Source: Minisyncoccota bacterium
GTDB lineage: Bacteria > Patescibacteriota > Minisyncoccia > JAHIHE01 > JAGLIN01
Reading direction: 5' to 3'
DNA: 64,000 bases
Assembly: GCA_023142595.1 (NCBI GenBank)
Contig: JAGLJF010000003.1
Coordinates: 3,873-67,872 of the forward strand
Positions 57,765 to 64,000 of this stretch are shown here, one piece after another. Numbering within the stretch: position 1 is the first letter of the stretch; every line of letters starts with the position of its first letter. Below the pieces are notes generated by a model. The model was not told the origin of the DNA, made no database searches, and worked only from the letters and a program-made list of their open reading frames with translations. Both the position numbers and the translations under genes were made by a program.

Positions 57765-58829
57765 TTATAAATATTTAGCTTCAATACCACAAGCTCCTTC
57801 AGAAGAAACCATGCAGGCACCAATTGGATTCTCAGAAGTGCATTTTTTGTTAAACAGCTTGCAATCTTTTGGCTGCTTGAGCCCACGAAGAATGGCCCCA
57901 CAAATACATCCAGTGCTCTCAAGAGATTCTTCGACAAGTTCAGAATGACAAGATAAAATATTTTTATATTTTACCTTCGCATCATACTTTGAATATTTTT
58001 CTCTAATTTTTAAACCTGAATTAGGAATATTTCCAAGTCCTCGCCAAAATGCATCTCCATTTTCAAAAACTTCATCAACTAATTTTCTGGCGACAGGATT
58101 TCCTTCTGGACGAACACATCTGGTATATTCATTTTCAACTTCTTCTCTTCTCTCTGCAATCTGTTTCAAAAGCATATAAATTCCAAGCAAAACATCTTCT
58201 CCGCTAAAACCAGTAATAACCTGAGAAAGTTTGAATTTTTGATATAGTTCTGTTCCAATGATAGCTGAAACATGTCCAGGATTCAAGAAGCCGTCAATTT
58301 TCAAAGTTGGAGTATCAACCAATACTTGCATCGCTGGAATAAAAAGTTTGTGAGATGAATAAACAGTCAAGCCTTTTTTAATTGCATCTGCCGTCATTGG
58401 AGTTGTTGTTTCAAATCCCAGTCCAAAAAAAACTAAATCCTTTTTTTCTTTTTGTAATTTTAAAGCATCTTCAGTTGAATAAACTTCATTAACATCAGCA
58501 CCAAGTTCGCGCGCTTTATTGAGAGATAATTTTTGTTTTTGTTTATCAGCTTTTAAAACTAAATTTCCTGGCACTCTGAGAACATCTCCATAACAAGCAA
58601 TTGGAACATCATTTAAAGCTAATTTAATTATTGCATCAACATCTTTTTGGTCTGTCACACAAACTGGACACCCAGGTCCCGAAAGAAGCTTCACATTTTT
58701 CGGCAAAATCTTCTTGATACCGTTTTTTGCAACAGCTTCAGTATGCGTCCCACAAAGCTCCATAATCACAACATCGCGATTAATTTCTTTTGCAAGAATT
58801 TCAATTTTTTTTATTATATTTAATGTCAT
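57765..58829 (-). CDS. hypD: Hydrogenase maturation factor HypD
   Basis: Diagnostic motifs CGTHTE (CGxH), GPGCPVCV, C-terminal CxxC...CxxC. Contains a 28-bp MITE right-end fragment in-frame (57923..57950). Confidence 0.8.
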   Translation of the reverse strand: MTLNIIKKIEILAKEINRDVVIMELCGTHTEAVAKNGIKKILPKNVKLLSGPGCPVCVTDQKDVDAIIKLALNDVPIACYGDVLRVPGNLVLKADKQKQKLSLNKARELGADVNEVYSTEDALKLQKEKKDLVFFGLGFETTTPMTADAIKKGLTVYSSHKLFIPAMQVLVDTPTLKIDGFLNPGHVSAIIGTELYQKFKLSQVITGFSGEDVLLGIYMLLKQIAERREEVENEYTRCVRPEGNPVARKLVDEVFENGDAFWRGLGNIPNSGLKIREKYSKYDAKVKYKNILSCHSELVEESLESTGCICGAILRGLKQPKDCKLFNKKCTSENPIGACMVSSEGACGIEAKYL

Positions 58830-58876
58830 TTTTTAATAACCTAATTCGATTTAAACCGCTAACAAACACAAATGAT

Positions 58877-59096
58877 TGTCATCCTGAGTGAAACGAAGGA
58901 TCCCGTTATTAGTTTCATGAGGTGTTTTATAACGACTTGATGTACATAATCTCGGGATTCTTTACTACTATTCAGAATAACTGGATACACTATCATTCTG
59001 GGCTTGTCGAAGGATTCCACTGTTAGTTTTGTATAATATTTTATGACGATTTGATGTGCATAGTCGCGAGATTCTTCACTACCGTTCAGAATGACA
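58877..59096. mobile_element. Two tandem family-3 MITEs (~105 bp each; GTCATyCTGAGyG...GAAGGATyCC ... GGGATTCTT...TTCAGAATGACA) between hypD and hypC
   Basis: Copy 1 58877-58982, copy 2 58992-59096. Same family as the in-frame copy in hypF-Cterm and the partial copies at ~40370-40430. Confidence 0.7.
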
Positions 59097-59099
59097 ATA

Positions 59100-59309
59100 T
59101 TATTTCCCCTCCAACAAATCAGAAATTTCCTTTGCATCTTTGCTTGTTAATTTTTGAATTGCGAAACCAGCATGCACAATCGCATAATCCCCTTTTTTCA
59201 CATCAACTAAAGAAACATTCACCTCTCGTTCAATCCCGTCAAAATCAACCAACGCAACGTTGGTTTTTTTATCAACCGATTTTATTCTCCCCGGAATTGC
59301 TAAACACAT
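59100..59309 (-). CDS. hypC: Hydrogenase maturation factor HypC (HupF/HybG family)
   Basis: Starts MCLAIPGRI (canonical MC(L/I)(A/G)(I/V)P). 69 aa. Confidence 0.75.
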   Translation of the reverse strand: MCLAIPGRIKSVDKKTNVALVDFDGIEREVNVSLVDVKKGDYAIVHAGFAIQKLTSKDAKEISDLLEGK

Positions 59310-59336: not shown

Positions 59337-60371
59337 TTATTTATTTTTAATATATTTCCCTTTTGTCTCAGGAAATAAAATATTAATAATTTCCTTGGCC
59401 ACATTTCTTGATTTTCCAATTGCGGGAAAATGATGCATACGCAAACCAGGCGACGGGTTTAATTCAATTATTACGTAACTATTTTTTGTCGGTTTTTCTG
59501 AAATATCTTTATTAATCATTATATCAATTCCTCCATAAGCAAGTCCTGGTATTGCTTGAATTGTCTTCACGGCAATCATTTTTAGTTCAGGATGAACTTG
59601 ATCTGTAACGTCAATACTATCTCCACCTGTCGAAAGATTTGAATTTTTTCTAAGATAAATTTTTTTGTCAAAGGGTAGAATACTTTCCATTTCCTTTTTT
59701 TGCTCCTTGAGATATTGTTTTATTCTGTTATCTATTTTAATTTTTGTTAAAGGACACATATGCCCTTCACCTCTTCTTGGGTCTTGATTTTTGATTTTTA
59801 TCAATTCTCTAATCGAATGTATCCCATTTCCAACAACATTAGCAGGATCTCTTTGTGCTACTGCGAATACTTTGTTTCGCCCAGCAATAAATCTAAACTC
59901 TTTTCCACTAAATTCCTTTTCCACTAAAACATAATTATTTTTTTTCAAAATACAATTAATCGCCTTTTCGCAATTGTTTTTGTTGTTTATTCCAATAAAA
60001 ACTAAATCCCCATGAACACCATCAAAAGGTTTTATTACTATTGGATATTTAATTTTATCTATAAATTTATATACGTCTTCAATGTTTTTTTTGTTAAAAA
60101 GTTTTCCTTTGACGACACTTATTTTTACTCGTGTTAATAATTTTTTTGTCAGAGATTTGTTTTCCACTGCATAAGTCGCGCAAACTGTTGATTTCGAAAT
60201 ATTTGACCCCAAAATATATTCATAATGATTTTTATAAATTAATTCCAGAAAAGCCATCTCCTTTTGATAATTGTTAATATGATTTATTTTTATACCCCTG
60301 CTTATCGCTTCTTCAGCAAGAATCTTACTACTAATCATATTTATGGTTTTTGGTATTTTGGTATTTTTCAT
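59337..60371 (-). CDS. ATP-grasp ligase, cyanophycin-synthetase N-terminal-domain-like (standalone), paralog 1
   Basis: C-terminal IIELNPSPGLRMHHFPAIGKSRNVAKEIINILF resembles the CphA ATP-grasp tail (PGLRMH...G.PR.VA). No Mur-ligase domain. Confidence 0.55.
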   Translation of the reverse strand: MKNTKIPKTINMISSKILAEEAISRGIKINHINNYQKEMAFLELIYKNHYEYILGSNISKSTVCATYAVENKSLTKKLLTRVKISVVKGKLFNKKNIEDVYKFIDKIKYPIVIKPFDGVHGDLVFIGINNKNNCEKAINCILKKNNYVLVEKEFSGKEFRFIAGRNKVFAVAQRDPANVVGNGIHSIRELIKIKNQDPRRGEGHMCPLTKIKIDNRIKQYLKEQKKEMESILPFDKKIYLRKNSNLSTGGDSIDVTDQVHPELKMIAVKTIQAIPGLAYGGIDIMINKDISEKPTKNSYVIIELNPSPGLRMHHFPAIGKSRNVAKEIINILFPETKGKYIKNK

Positions 60372-60391
60372 AAAATTAAAATTACTTTATA

Positions 60392-61411
60392 TTATTTTGT
60401 TTCAGGAAATAATAAGTCAAATATTCCCTTTGCCACATCCCTAGGTTTTCCTTTGTATGGAAAATGTTGCATATCAAACCCAGGAGAACAATTCAATTCA
60501 ATAATTATATAACTCTTTTTTGTCGGTTTTTTTGAGATATCTTGACTAGAAAGCAGATCCACTCCTGCATATCCAAGTCCTGGAATGGCTCGTACTGACT
60601 TAATCACAATCTTTTTTAATTCTGGATGAACTTCGTCGGTGACATCAACGCTGTCACCACCAGTTGAAATGTTTGATTCTTTTTTAAGATAGATCTTTTC
60701 TTCTTTGGAAGGAGTATAATTTAAATCTATTTTTTGCTCATCTAAATTCTGCTTTACAAATTTATCTATTTTTATTTTTTGGTGAGGCTTTTCATAGTTT
60801 TCTCCTCTGTTTGAGTCGCAGTTCTTTATTTTTATCAATTCTCTAATCGTATGAATCCCATCTCCAACAACATTGGCAGGATCTCTATTTGCCACAGCAA
60901 AAATTTTATTACGACTTGCTAAAAACCTATGTTCTTTTCCATTAAACTCCTTTTCTATTAAAGCATACTTATGTTTCTTGAACACGATTCCAATCGCCTC
61001 CTTACATTTTTTTTCAGAATCAAGACCCATAAAAACCGACTCTCCATGACACCCATCAAATGGTTTTATCACAACGGGGTAACCTATTTTTTTTGCAAAT
61101 TCTAATGATTTTTCTAAATCTCCTTTACAAAATATAGAACCTTTTGCAACGCTTATGTTAGACCTTAGAAGAAGACTTCTTGTTATAGCCTTATTCTCCG
61201 TTGCATAAAATGCAGGGAATGATGTTTTTGAACTATTTTGTCCTTTAATATATTCAAAATGATTTTTGTATGAAAGCTCAAGAAAAGACATTTCTCTTTG
61301 ATTATTATTAATATGACTAACTTTTATCCCTCTTCTGATTGCTTCTTCAACAAGAAGAATCGTACTAAATGATTGAATGTTCTTTGTTATTTTTGTACTA
61401 TAATTTTTCAT
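60392..61411 (-). CDS. ATP-grasp ligase, cyanophycin-synthetase N-terminal-domain-like, paralog 2
   Basis: About 45% identical to paralog 1 (IIELNCSPGFDMQHFPYKGKPRDVAKGIFDLLF). 20-nt gap to the next gene. Confidence 0.55.
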   Translation of the reverse strand: MKNYSTKITKNIQSFSTILLVEEAIRRGIKVSHINNNQREMSFLELSYKNHFEYIKGQNSSKTSFPAFYATENKAITRSLLLRSNISVAKGSIFCKGDLEKSLEFAKKIGYPVVIKPFDGCHGESVFMGLDSEKKCKEAIGIVFKKHKYALIEKEFNGKEHRFLASRNKIFAVANRDPANVVGDGIHTIRELIKIKNCDSNRGENYEKPHQKIKIDKFVKQNLDEQKIDLNYTPSKEEKIYLKKESNISTGGDSVDVTDEVHPELKKIVIKSVRAIPGLGYAGVDLLSSQDISKKPTKKSYIIIELNCSPGFDMQHFPYKGKPRDVAKGIFDLLFPETK

Positions 61412-61414
61412 AAT

Positions 61415-62338
61415 TTAGTCAATATCTTTTAAAAACTTTATAATTTCTTTGTAATATATTTTTAAATATTTTTTATTTTCCAAATGAAGGCTTGGTGGCG
61501 AATTAATCTCTAAAACATAAGGATTCTGCTTTTTATCAAAAATAAAATCTATGCTATAGAATGTATTATTAAATATTTTTAATTTTTTCAAAATAGATTC
61601 TAATTTTATTTGCAATTTTGTTGGCATTAAATTAAGATCAACCATTGTTCTTTTTCCTCCTAAGGATACATTTGCCACCAAAAATCCCTTAATAGGCTCT
61701 CTCACATAAGATATTATCGGTTTATGATTTATAAATATTATTCTTAAATCATGAGTGCTTTTTGCTATTTTACCAAGACCTGAACTACTATCTATAAAAT
61801 CCTGAATAATAACAGGGTAATTGCCTACTTCCTTTACAATATTTTTTATTTCTTTTTTATCTAATATTCTTATATTCTTTCCGCCGAACCCTCTATCTGG
61901 CTTTAAAACTATTTTTGACTTAAATAATTTTGTCTTATTTATTAAATCTCTTTTATTATACGCAATGAAAGTTTTCGACATATAATCATTCAATATAGAA
62001 TAAGTCAAATACTTGCTTCCAAATATAAAATCAAAGTATGAATCATTTACTATTCTAATGTTTTTTGCTATTTCCTCTTTTTTTATTTTTATATATTTAT
62101 TTCTGCTATCACAAAAATCAAAAACTATATCTGGATATATTTCTTTTTCTTCTATCCATTTTTCATTTTTATAAGTAAAAGCCTTTTTAAAAAGTTTTCC
62201 ATAATTATATTTAATATGTGCTCGATAAAACTTTATACCTTTCTGAGCTCCCATTTCATATAATAATTCATAATTTTTTCTCTTATTTTCATCTTTTATT
62301 ATATCGCTATCACTGTATAAAATTAATACTTTTTTCAT
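61415..62338 (-). CDS. ATP-grasp ligase, RimK/GshB/LysX-like
   Basis: KPDRGFGGKNIRIL (P-loop-like ATP-grasp motif). YVLEINSPPSL. 3-nt gap to the downstream gene. Confidence 0.5.
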   Translation of the reverse strand: MKKVLILYSDSDIIKDENKRKNYELLYEMGAQKGIKFYRAHIKYNYGKLFKKAFTYKNEKWIEEKEIYPDIVFDFCDSRNKYIKIKKEEIAKNIRIVNDSYFDFIFGSKYLTYSILNDYMSKTFIAYNKRDLINKTKLFKSKIVLKPDRGFGGKNIRILDKKEIKNIVKEVGNYPVIIQDFIDSSSGLGKIAKSTHDLRIIFINHKPIISYVREPIKGFLVANVSLGGKRTMVDLNLMPTKLQIKLESILKKLKIFNNTFYSIDFIFDKKQNPYVLEINSPPSLHLENKKYLKIYYKEIIKFLKDID

Positions 62339-62366
62339 AATTATGTAATTAATAAAAAAATTTCTT

Positions 62367-63800
62367 TTAGGCTTTAATATATTTATTTTTTTGTTCCTTC
62401 CAAATTTGTATCGCTACATTTTTTATCTCATTTATTTCTTTCTTATATGCATTACAATTATTATATATTCCCAATCTAAGCAAATTAGGCATTAATTCTG
62501 GATCAACCTTTGACATATAAATATATCTATCAACACCAGCTTCTTTCATTTTTTTTGCCTCAATTTCACCCTTAAAATAACTTAGGTCTTTTGAAAAATA
62601 TATTCCTATTTCCCCATTATTATTTGGATCAAAACCTCTAAATATTCTTCTACAAGTTGACTCCGTTCTAAAAATAGCCCTTTTTTTACTAGTTTTAACA
62701 CTATTGCCTAGTGCTCTTTCTTCTTTATGTTTTAAATCAAAAATATAATCGTAAATTTCAGAAAAATTATAACCTTTTTTTGCCTTATTCATTGCCAGAA
62801 CAAAATATGGTAATGCCTTTATTTTAAAGTCTGTTACACCTAATATTTTTCCTCTGAGTTCTGTTTCATTTAGCAAGGCGATGCCTTCATGAACTGATTC
62901 CCAATTTTTACCAATAGACAGTCCCTTCAAACCTAATTTATCATTATAATAGTTTGACATTGCGTGAGCTCCAATTTCATGAGCTATAAGCTCAAGCATT
63001 TTAAGCAAGGATACTTTTCTTCCTTTTGGAACAAGAATGACGGGATATTTATATCTAGAGTCATTATATCGTACGTCTATAGCTCTAACCTCTTTAGTAA
63101 GAATAACCTTAAAATTACTACTTTTAAATCTAGCTTTTTCTAGAGCAATCTCAAAATATTCCTTTATTTCTTTATCATTGAGATAGGTTTTTTCTAAAAA
63201 TTCAATCCCTTCGTTCTTCTTTTTTAAATTTTTTTGATAATTCTTAAAAAATTCTATTTTTTCTGCATAACATTTTTCAGCGATTTTTACCAATTCTTCA
63301 TCAATATCTCCATAAGCGATTTTCATATAATCAAACGCTTTTTCTAAATTATTGTTTTTTAATTCTACAAGAATATTTATTTTTGCTATATAATTCTCGA
63401 TAACTTTGCAAACAACAATTTTAATATCTTTATTTTTTTCCTTGATAACTATTTTTTTTATATCTTCTAATTTTTTTATATCTTCTTCTAGCCTTTTTTT
63501 ACTTATTTTTTTCAATTTTGGATATGTAAAAGTAGGACAATATTTATTTTTTATATTTTTATTTTCATTTTTTCGTTTTTCAAGAAATAAATCAAATTCT
63601 TCTTTAAATGTTCTACCATCAGCTCCACTAGGTTCAAAATAATCATAAACCATTTCATAATTACCCCCAATTCTATCAATTTCAGTTAAGTGCTTAATTA
63701 ATTTCTTTTTTTGATACAAATTGATTTTTTTTGATTTTGATTTTTCTTCCGCCTTCTTAATCTCTAAAATAATCTTTTTAATTTTTTTATCGGTTTTCAT
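62367..63800 (-). CDS. Zincin-like metallopeptidase (HExxH) with QEGLA-like motif, DUF1704-like
   Basis: HEIGAH (HExxH) followed ~25 aa later by VHEGIALLNE (QEGLA-motif variant). 477 aa. First gene of the ATP-grasp operon. Confidence 0.45.
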   Translation of the reverse strand: MKTDKKIKKIILEIKKAEEKSKSKKINLYQKKKLIKHLTEIDRIGGNYEMVYDYFEPSGADGRTFKEEFDLFLEKRKNENKNIKNKYCPTFTYPKLKKISKKRLEEDIKKLEDIKKIVIKEKNKDIKIVVCKVIENYIAKINILVELKNNNLEKAFDYMKIAYGDIDEELVKIAEKCYAEKIEFFKNYQKNLKKKNEGIEFLEKTYLNDKEIKEYFEIALEKARFKSSNFKVILTKEVRAIDVRYNDSRYKYPVILVPKGRKVSLLKMLELIAHEIGAHAMSNYYNDKLGLKGLSIGKNWESVHEGIALLNETELRGKILGVTDFKIKALPYFVLAMNKAKKGYNFSEIYDYIFDLKHKEERALGNSVKTSKKRAIFRTESTCRRIFRGFDPNNNGEIGIYFSKDLSYFKGEIEAKKMKEAGVDRYIYMSKVDPELMPNLLRLGIYNNCNAYKKEINEIKNVAIQIWKEQKNKYIKA

Positions 63801-63851
63801 GGTCCTGAATTAATTTGAAACTGCTCTTTTTATTTTTTAAATAATAACTTA

Positions 63852-64000
63852 TGCTCCAAAAACCGTCTTCGCCTTCTTGCTTGGATCAACTAAAAATTTT
63901 CCCAAACTTCTTCTACCAATAATCACTGGGAATTCAAGATTGCTTCTGTCCGTAATAGACATTTTTGAAACAACTTCCACTCCAGACAAGACAATATTCA
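63852..64000 (-). CDS. Partial CDS (C-terminus only), unknown; upstream neighbour of the peptidase/ATP-grasp operon
   Basis: Open frame ...NIVLSGVEVVSKMSITDRSNLEFPVIIGRRSLGKFLVDPSKKAKTVFGA*. Runs off the window end. Confidence 0.3.

Follow-up and report, generated by a model that had tools for sequence, protein, structure and literature searches.

A conserved Patescibacteria operon of ATP-grasp ligases and peptidases that may build and trim a glutamate-rich peptide without the ribosome

Four closely packed minus-strand genes on a Patescibacteria metagenome contig, three encoding ATP-grasp ligases and one a metallopeptidase, raise the question of what such a set of enzymes makes and takes apart. 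The genes lie near the end of the window, by which we mean the whole 64,000-nucleotide stretch of contig JAGLJF010000003.1 that was analysed, and the block at 59337-63800 was examined together with the corresponding loci of relatives (labelled L001 and so on, L001 being the source contig itself, a 99.8-kb metagenome scaffold). The four genes are the downstream portion of a six-gene operon that is conserved in Patescibacteria, also called the candidate phyla radiation (CPR). The order of the operon is a seven-transmembrane (7TM) protein, a RloC-type ATP-grasp ligase fused to a retropepsin, a MATCAP-like peptidase, a RimK/GshB-like ligase, and two ATP-grasp ligases of the type found in the G domain of cyanophycin synthetase CphA. 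The reading that we favour, with a probability of about 0.5, is that these enzymes extend and trim a glutamate-rich peptide stepwise at its C-terminus, in the cytoplasm and without the ribosome, coupled to a membrane partner and related to the Rlo and Rim systems of Pseudomonas. A preliminary description of the window had proposed an uncharacterised ATP-grasp and peptidase system that builds and trims peptides; this core holds, and the proposal is supported in part, having missed the Rlo/Rim-type module upstream.

The operon continues beyond the window

All four open reading frames (ORFs) are present as first described, packed in one direction with gaps of 28, 3, and 20 nt (Table 1). Positions 63801-64000 hold a 48-nt spacer and the 50 final codons of a further co-directional gene (stop codon at 63849-63851), whose partial product terminates in ...EFPVIIGRRSLGKFLVDPSKKAKTVFGA before the stop. 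Since this co-directional 3' end occupies 63849-64000, the operon extends past the window. The earlier proposal of a ligase and peptidase operon is thus right about its four genes and too narrow about its extent, the upstream context lying where the window stops. Simple promoter and terminator scans inside the block found nothing exceeding the shuffled background.

On the source contig, the fusion gene starts inside the 7TM gene, with 17 nt in common. The 216-aa product of the 7TM gene matches the 7TM_transglut family (Pfam ID PF14402) with an E value of 3.4e-30 and covers positions 313-507 of the 508 positions of the RloB model, being the 7TM part only, with no RloB transglutaminase ectodomain. 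Homologues form at least 718 protein clusters, and the 120 closest of these, which are the ones listed, are all about 216 aa long and show an identity of 57-92%.

In the fusion protein, the N-terminal 290 residues are a RloC-type ATP-grasp and the C-terminal residues, about 135, are a RimB/RloA-type retropepsin. The TIGR02291 model covers the entire ATP-grasp part with 297.2 bits, just under the curated threshold of 314.2, and further matches are PF14397 (6.5e-76), PF05618 (2.4e-9), and the RloA models (about 1e-9). The catalytic DTGA motif of the retropepsin is intact and aligns to a RimB-type structure (PDB ID 9G59), and the motifs of both the ATP-grasp and the retropepsin are kept across 7 loci. 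The retropepsin has no signal peptide and is joined to the C-terminus of a cytoplasmic ligase, unlike RloA, which is a secreted stand-alone protease. The ATP-binding Lys, the Gly-rich loop, and the Mg-binding D...E-x-N are kept in all four ligases of the operon and in their orthologues.

Parts of the Rlo and RimB systems were characterised genetically and biochemically in Pseudomonas in 2025 (PMC12239564, PMC11957791). RimK makes poly-alpha-L-glutamate and glutamylates ribosomal protein S6, and RimB cleaves such tails; RimB also stimulates RimK, whose output of free poly-glutamate rises about fourfold, and hybrids of RimB and RimK are known to be active (PMC11957791). Cleavage of poly-glutamate is common to the RimB and RloA retropepsins (PMC11957791, PMC12239564). 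Loss of the secreted RloA retropepsin in Pseudomonas causes osmotic, biofilm, and shape defects, which are suppressed by mutations in rloB or rloC (PMC12239564), and therefore RloB and RloC would make something that the protease must remove.

The CPR cluster shares with RloABC of Pseudomonas aeruginosa and with RimB-RimK a 7TM_transglut-family protein, an ATP-grasp of TIGR02291/RimK type (just under the TIGR02291 threshold, as noted above), and a RimB/RloA-type retropepsin that has the catalytic DTG. With RimBK it also shares the fusion of ligase and protease, an arrangement known to be active there. These components point to poly-alpha-glutamate chemistry. The differences are equally clear. 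The CPR 7TM protein lacks the inactive transglutaminase ectodomain of RloB, and its retropepsin forms the C-terminal part of the ligase protein; RloA, by contrast, is secreted, and in RimBK the protease is N-terminal. Furthermore, the CPR cluster adds a MATCAP-like carboxypeptidase, a GshB/RimK-like ligase, and one to four CphA-G-type ligases to what the rlo and rim operons hold.

The peptidase has the fold of human MATCAP

The 477-aa protein matches the DUF1704 family (Pfam ID PF08014) over residues 84-423 with 61.1 bits (gathering score 27) and an E value of 1.2e-16. Against the TIGR02421 QEGLA model it scores 46.1 bits (E value 4e-12), where the equivalog cutoff is 338.65, and from its sequence we place it in a distant subfamily rather than among the TIGR02421 orthologues. 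The metal site is an HExxxH motif (H274-E275-I-G-A-H279) with a third ligand, E305, in HEGIA, the equivalent of QEGLA or EEG. No variation occurs at H274, E275, H279, E305, G306, R385, R388, G389, and F402 across 24 homologues, which have 36-77% identity to the window protein. The DUF1704 assignment and the conserved zincin core of the preliminary description are thereby borne out, and only its motif needs correction, from HExxH with QEGLA to HExxxH (HEIGAH) with HEGIA.

An AlphaFold2 model of the protein (pLDDT 90.7) was compared with the PDB using Foldseek. The top four matches are human MATCAP structures (PDB IDs 7Z5G and 7Z6S), with a probability of 1.00, E values of 3e-5 to 7e-5, TM scores of 0.50-0.53, and 14-15% identity. 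The next match has an E value of 0.075, and other gluzincins such as ACE2 follow distantly. MATCAP was matched by the fold search alone, PDB sequence searches with the single peptidase sequence and with a 24-sequence profile having failed to match it. The HExxxH spacing and a downstream Glu in an EEG motif define the MATCAP/TMCP enzymes (KIAA0895L and KIAA0895), which are processive carboxypeptidases that remove C-terminal residues sequentially from acidic tails (PMC10499314), and the window protein resembles them in its fold and in its HExxxH and xEG metal site. It has neither a signal peptide nor a hydrophobic N-terminus and should therefore be cytoplasmic; altogether, it is a predicted cytoplasmic carboxypeptidase. 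It differs from human MATCAP in being bacterial, in its low identity, and in having no tubulin or microtubule-binding elements, and its substrate is probably not a protein.

An exhaustive profile search of 1.84 billion representatives found 921 relatives of the peptidase at an E value of 1e-3 or below and 67 at 1e-30 or below, which indicates a small, specialised subfamily. Three loci have a second MATCAP-like paralogue, longer (557-587 aa) and more divergent, that closes the cluster (L004 15886-17631, L012 13185-14945, and L013 10586-12256), with Pfam E values from about 1e-6 to 2e-7 for the L004 and L012 proteins; in the window operon there is a single copy. An unexpected architecture in the representative library is P0304 (879 aa), in which an RVT_1 reverse transcriptase (3.6e-14, residues 64-243) is fused to a MATCAP-like region at about residues 414-828.

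A comparable pairing is found in proteobacteria. In Aminobacter aminovorans pAA02, for example, the genes for an N-formylglutamate amidohydrolase, a TIGR02421 QEGLA protein (354 bits), and a GshB-like ATP-grasp (PRK12458) are neighbours, and the DUF1704/QEGLA peptidase adjoins the GshB-type ATP-grasp in one direction of transcription, as in the window. That neighbourhood lacks the 7TM protein, the retropepsin, and the CphA-G-type ligases and has instead the amidohydrolase, and as an analogue it points to small glutamate-peptide chemistry.

Two stand-alone ligases resemble the G domain of cyanophycin synthetase

The two ligases at the downstream end of the operon are 60% identical to each other, and both match only a part of the cyanophycin synthetase model TIGR02068. 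The 339-aa protein aligns to model positions 158-474 of 862 (E value 2.8e-85) and the 344-aa protein, for which gene callers choose a 333-aa start, to positions 160-477 (4.9e-92), with 287-309 bits against a cutoff of 850. We refer to them as the D class and the R class, respectively; the R-class ligase is 83% identical to its positional orthologue in L004. Both also match GshF and the synthetase of N-acetylglutaminylglutamine amide (NAGGN), in the ATP-grasp module only, which in the GshF model is the C-terminal region of about 325 residues. Each can be aligned over its full length with the CphA1 G domain (PDB IDs 7LGN and 7WAC) and with GshF (PDB ID 3LN7) and is about 40% identical to these across the ATP-grasp module.

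Residues were mapped on 127 CPR sequences, 2 CphA1, 12 GshF, and 15 non-CPR stand-alone relatives, with roles taken from Trichodesmium CphA1 (TeCphA1; PMC9427784). Residues K261, R309, R323, N394, D431, E450, and N452 of TeCphA1 are invariant or nearly so across all compared groups, and the catalytic set K261, H267, R309, D431, E450, and N452 is kept in both window ligases. The P-loop residue is His as in CphA1, where GshF has Phe or Tyr. The CphA1 G domain activates the C-terminal carboxylate of a peptide and adds one amino acid (PMC9427784), and the characterised relatives, CphA1 G and GshF, all extend a peptide C-terminal carboxylate by one residue. The chemistry is presumably shared, with an acyl-phosphate formed on the C-terminal carboxylate and then attacked by an amino acid.

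The substrate contacts are a different matter. In TeCphA1, Glu215 binds the Arg side chain of the cyanophycin primer, and Arg458 holds the alpha-carboxylate of the incoming aspartate (PMC9427784). The Glu215 position is Tyr in both window ligases and is Tyr in 74, Trp in 22, and Glu in 10 of 116 CPR homologues. The Arg458 position is hypervariable among 116 database homologues (Tyr 34, Ser 29, Arg 19, Phe 17, and Asp 13). A neighbour-joining tree separates about five coherent clades with the signatures GLRMH, GIYPQ, GIS(M/L)(H/Q), GID(I/P)(H/Q) together with GFDMQ, and GIFMH. At TeCphA1 positions G456-H460, the D-class copy has PGFDMQ, and the R-class copy has CphA1's own PGLRMH motif.

The CPR ligases are stand-alone proteins, without the anchoring N domain or the Arg-adding, Mur-ligase-like M domain of CphA and without a GshA domain. 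An identity as cyanophycin synthetase was rejected, as the G domain alone of the three-domain N/G/M architecture is present and the Arg-binding Glu215 is replaced. A role as GshF in glutathione synthesis was rejected as well, there being no glutamate-cysteine ligase (GCS) gene in the cluster, no GshA domain, and a His rather than Phe or Tyr in the P-loop.

The same comparisons bear on the idea that the cluster makes or stores a small cytoplasmic solute, such as a glutathione- or NAGGN-like di- or tripeptide or a cyanophycin-like polymer, that the peptidases mobilise. The best family matches of the G-type ligases, namely, CphA, GshF, and NAGGN synthetase, fit this idea, as does the link of Rlo to osmotic stress (PMC12239564), and a QEGLA gene of Photobacterium is induced 27-fold at low salinity (PMC10308900). 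We nevertheless consider it very improbable. The features that define CphA and GshF are missing as described above, the substitution of Glu215 by Tyr or Trp included, and no GNAT domain is present, unlike in NAGGN synthetase. In addition, the G-like ligases that do lie beside a glutamate-cysteine ligase belong to a separate non-CPR group without Rlo or MATCAP partners, and four to seven ligases, two peptidases, and a 7TM partner exceed the needs of a simple solute.

The non-CPR stand-alone ligases of about 340 aa, from Bacteroidales and some Firmicutes (L028-L085), are solitary. At least one locus, in Bacteroidales (L035 9971-12557), has the G-like ligase next to a GCS2 glutamate-cysteine ligase, apparently a split GshF-type glutathione pathway.

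A third ligase of the RimK/GshB type

The 307-aa protein matches the RimK (8e-12), ATP-grasp_3 (1e-10), GSH-S_ATP (2e-10), and NF009110 (8.7e-9) profiles, all far under equivalog cutoffs. An identity as RimK was rejected on a TIGR00768 score of 55 bits, where the cutoff is 143. No PDB match by sequence and no match to the PRK10446 model were found. The ATP-grasp motifs are intact (IVLKPDRGFGGKNI, DLRIIF, SIDFIF, and LEINSPP). This slot of the operon is variable, being filled in about half of the relatives by subfamilies that are mutually 23-28% identical, and the window protein is 24% identical to the ATP-grasp that adjoins the QEGLA gene in Aminobacter.

What had been said of the three ligases at first sight stands: two paralogues with a CphA-type module and no Mur-ligase half, and a third ligase of RimK/GshB type. 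None of them is an ordinary orthologue of Ddl, RimK, CphA, or GshF, all scoring far under the curated cutoffs. Judged by sequence, the CPR proteins are not members of CphA, GshF, RimK, or TIGR02421 in the strict sense, yet they are similar to them at the level of individual reactions.

A RimK-like ligase beside a MATCAP-like peptidase also raises the possibility of a code written on a protein tail. The ligases would add a poly-glutamate tail and caps to the C-terminus of one protein, and the retropepsin and the MATCAP-like enzyme would remove them, giving a reversible mark like that of RimK and RimB on S6 or that of TTL/TTLL with MATCAP and CCP on tubulin. The tubulin system is alike in having ATP-grasp writers opposed by a carboxypeptidase eraser at an acidic C-terminus, and paired writer and eraser enzymes are typical of reversible marks. 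RimK and RimB do act on S6 (PMC11957791), the MATCAP family, whose fold the window peptidase shares, are protein-tail carboxypeptidases (PMC10499314), and the 307-aa ligase and its orthologues give a faint match (3.2e-7) to the TTL family of Pfam. We still regard a protein-tail code as unlikely, since a candidate acceptor is present neither within nor beside any of about 20 clusters and the C-terminus of the 7TM protein is not acidic. An S6 gene was not found in the window or in L001, in a search that is weak because CPR proteins are divergent. The characterised relatives of the G-type ligases work on small peptides or polymers, and the proteobacterial QEGLA context contains a small-molecule amidohydrolase.

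The cluster is conserved at a fixed genomic position

About 20 independent loci of relatives were read, including loci from a metagenome scan, which returned only 4 extra ones. Where homologues of the peptidase, of the G-type ligase, or of the 7TM protein bear a taxon name, it is with one exception a name within Patescibacteria (Paceibacterota, Parcubacteria, Andersenbacteria, and Moraniibacteriota), and the source organism itself belongs to CPR, close to Paceibacterota. The genes for the 7TM protein and the ATP-grasp-retropepsin fusion precede the MATCAP-like gene in all 15 loci whose upstream side is readable, and at least one CphA-G-type ligase is in the cluster in all 13 MATCAP-gene loci that can be read downstream. 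An operon carries one to four G-type ligases, L004 having four in addition to its second MATCAP paralogue. Among 9 CPR/DPANN loci from a search that took the ligase as its anchor, 6 had the 7TM and fusion genes and 4 had the peptidase; a genome scan with the ligase alignment yielded mostly GshF genes. The conserved core consists of the 7TM protein, the RloC-retropepsin fusion, and the G-type ligase, with the MATCAP-like peptidase as a very frequent member. Co-conservation of the four window genes is seen insofar as they recur together in relatives, although the MATCAP-like and RimK-like genes are frequent rather than universal and the G-type ligases vary in copy number.

The peptidase is tied functionally to the upstream genes by three independent gene fusions. 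Single proteins of 916-961 aa combine the ATPgrasp_ST domain, the retropepsin, and the MATCAP-like domain in L009, L013, and P0288, and in P0289 the retropepsin is joined to the MATCAP-like domain. Gene content, co-conservation, and fusions can be read directly from these loci, as can the intact catalytic residues, the fold of the peptidase, and the loss of the features specific to cyanophycin synthetase.

The cluster lies nearly always directly downstream of YebC/TACO1-family and RuvC genes (L001 6117-7750, L004-L007, L010-L018, L093, and L094). This synteny is unusually stable, the identity of the MATCAP-like proteins to that of the window being as low as 34%; in L018, the YebC and RuvC genes are on the opposite strand. 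In L017 (2131-4836), a CPR relative, the stretch from RuvC to two G-type ligases has, instead of the 7TM and fusion genes, a GalT/HIT-like gene and a gene for a 559-aa IQCH-like ATP-grasp (Pfam ID PF24923, 2.4e-25) on the opposite strand.

Two further roles were considered and rejected. A precursor-peptide gene does not fit into the gaps of the window, and two short ORFs of relatives, with 71 and 30 aa in L007 and L009, are pieces of MATCAP-like genes. A role in defence was dismissed after PADLOC gave no defence-system match for any of the six proteins.

A MurL-family gene adjoins the RimK-like ligase in L006 (7618-8952) and L008 (8188-8949) and has no counterpart in the window. Its product matches NF041275 over the full length (1.4e-59). 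MurL itself uses ATP to epimerise a peptide's C-terminal L-Glu to D-Glu (PMC8788868), and the gene hints at a D-Glu-containing product.

With an epimerase of this family inside the cluster, the ligases might build or remodel a peptide on a cell wall or lipid precursor, comparable to the stem of peptidoglycan or pseudomurein, with the 7TM protein as flippase or acceptor. Glycosyltransferase genes after the cluster in L006, L007, and L010 and weak matches to an archaeal pseudomurein ATP-grasp model point the same way, and Pseudomonas rlo mutants show cell-shape and cell-wall-antibiotic phenotypes (PMC12239564). Such an envelope peptide is decidedly unlikely in our view. The glycosyltransferase and MurL neighbours are not conserved, the window having hypC and hypD instead, the MurL homologue reaches 202 bits where the equivalog cutoff is 700, and the cluster contains no Mur-ligase, MraY-type, or undecaprenyl-related gene.

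A proposed model for building and trimming

We return to the stepwise synthesis of a glutamate-rich peptide, related to Rlo and Rim, as the preferred reading. Every enzyme would be cytoplasmic and would work at the C-terminal carboxylate of a glutamate-rich alpha-peptide as it grows. The RloC-type ligase would make an oligo-alpha-glutamate stem in the manner of RimK, and the fused retropepsin would limit the length of the stem or stimulate its synthesis, as RimB does for RimK. The CphA-G-type ligases would phosphorylate the C-terminal carboxylate of the peptide and add one residue each, as the CphA1 G domain and GshF do, with the clades that carry R, D, S, Y, and F at the contact for the incoming substrate adding different residues. 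Another residue, probably Glu, may come from the RimK/GshB-like ligase, and in some relatives the MurL-family enzyme may epimerise the C-terminal Glu. The MATCAP-like enzyme would remove C-terminal residues for proofreading, maturation, or recycling of the product, and the highly conserved 7TM protein may anchor the machinery or export the product to the cell envelope. What we infer here is the substrate, the sequence of steps, what each paralogue catalyses, and how the 7TM protein contributes.

A free peptide seems the likeliest product, ahead of a protein-bound one, on four grounds: no cluster contains an acceptor gene, a precursor gene would not fit in, small peptides are the substrates of the nearest relatives of the G-type ligases, and in proteobacteria the pair of peptidase and ligase adjoins a small-molecule amidohydrolase.

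Several points weigh against this model. The MATCAP-like gene is absent from some related clusters (L015 and L016) and the RimK-like slot is variable, so the four genes are not an obligatory unit. Variation of a single contact residue is no proof of different amino-acid specificities, and a protein acceptor could be encoded elsewhere. Most of the neighbourhood data come from metagenome contigs of related lineages and from few sampling studies.

Other features of the window

The cluster is followed by hypC, which begins 27 nt beyond the last ligase, and by hypD, so that [NiFe]-hydrogenase maturation genes are present in a Patescibacteria genome. The two genes were rejected as part of the module, as they follow the cluster only in the lineage of the window (L001-L003), while TPR, glycosyltransferase, MFS, or NUDIX genes take this place elsewhere. 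The link of hypC to the operon that the preliminary description had considered thus fails, its position not being conserved in relatives.

The spacer between hypC and hypD is 270 nt long and contains, at 58872-59096 on the minus strand, two diverged tandem copies of an element of about 111-114 nt, with about 70% identity by eye and the terminal inverted repeats GUCAUUCUGAAC...CAGAAUGAU. Each copy folds as a hairpin closed by its own ends (dG -20.3 and z -1.2 for one, dG -24.8 and z -2.65 for the other), and these are the only two copies in the window. Searches of the spacer against Rfam and for repeats gave no match. The element may be related to miniature inverted-repeat transposable elements (MITEs) or repetitive extragenic palindromic (REP) sequences or may be a structured RNA, and a 92-aa ORF at 58859-59137 is probably merely the translated element. 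Ribosomal protein L19 (56619-57188, plus strand) has a Lys/Glu-rich C-terminal extension of about 70 residues, ...KEEISEEDKNAETKTDDTEIKGKEEMKESSKEKEEDVAVEKEEKVAKDKKEVTEEK.

Table 1. Genes of the cluster and its surroundings (window coordinates, or L001 coordinates where indicated)
Feature	Position	Strand or direction	Basis or remark
500-aa ATP-grasp-retropepsin gene, 3' end (last 50 codons and stop)	63849..64000	-	Frame runs off the window end
MATCAP/DUF1704 metallopeptidase, 477 aa	62367..63800	-	Pfam PF08014, conserved metal site, fold
RimK/GshB-like ATP-grasp ligase, 307 aa	61415..62338	-	RimK, ATP-grasp_3, and GSH-S_ATP profiles
Stand-alone CphA G-domain / GshF C-terminal type ligase, 339 aa (D class)	60392..61411	-	TIGR02068
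Second stand-alone CphA G-domain type ligase, 344 aa (R class)	59337..60371	-	TIGR02068
hypC	59100-59309	-	Profile match
hypD	57765-58829	-	HypD, 8e-124
7TM (RloB C-terminal-like) gene, 216 aa	L001:7816-8466	Co-directional, outside the window	PF14402
Full ATP-grasp-retropepsin fusion gene	L001:8450-9952	Co-directional with the four genes	TIGR02291, PF14397, PF05618, RloA models

Novelty and significance

Comparative genomics of amidoligases in 2009 reportedly predicted that ATP-grasp enzymes are paired with peptidases, either to write and remove peptide tags or to produce small peptides, and the cluster falls in this conceptual class that specialists already anticipate. A full-text literature search found no paper that combines ATP-grasp with DUF1704, and searches for MATCAP with ATP-grasp and for Patescibacteria with ATP-grasp found no paper that describes this cluster. 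As far as these searches show, several features are specific to CPR and undescribed: a RloB reduced to its 7TM part, a fusion of ligase and retropepsin in reversed order compared to RimBK, a MATCAP-like carboxypeptidase, and an array of stand-alone CphA-G-type ligases in specificity clades.

The CPR bacteria, or Patescibacteria, account for a large part of bacterial diversity; their genomes are tiny and miss many biosynthetic pathways. Many of them keep this ATP-costly cluster of 5-10 genes at a fixed genomic position, and its retention, together with the high identity of the 7TM protein, implies an important function. The cluster joins three unconnected lines of work, on the Rlo/Rim poly-glutamate systems, the MATCAP carboxypeptidases, and the G domain of cyanophycin synthetase. 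Its soluble enzyme set is tractable for finding the product and could also reveal the product of RloBC in Pseudomonas, and the clade-specific substitutions at the contact position are candidate specificity variants for enzymology and for the engineering of peptide ligases.

A more ambitious and quite tentative possibility is that the cluster encodes an ATP-grasp assembly line that works without a template: every ligase clade would add its own defined residue, the two peptidases would edit, and the 7TM partner would hand the product to the cell surface. If true, the assembly line would yield a defined hetero-oligopeptide, possibly with D-Glu, with an important role in the envelope or in the episymbiotic lifestyle of such ultra-small cells. 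Nonribosomal peptides would then have a third route, beside the nonribosomal peptide synthetases and the Mur-type ligases, and the tail-editing logic of TTL/TTLL and MATCAP in eukaryotes would have a prokaryotic counterpart, possibly its evolutionary source.

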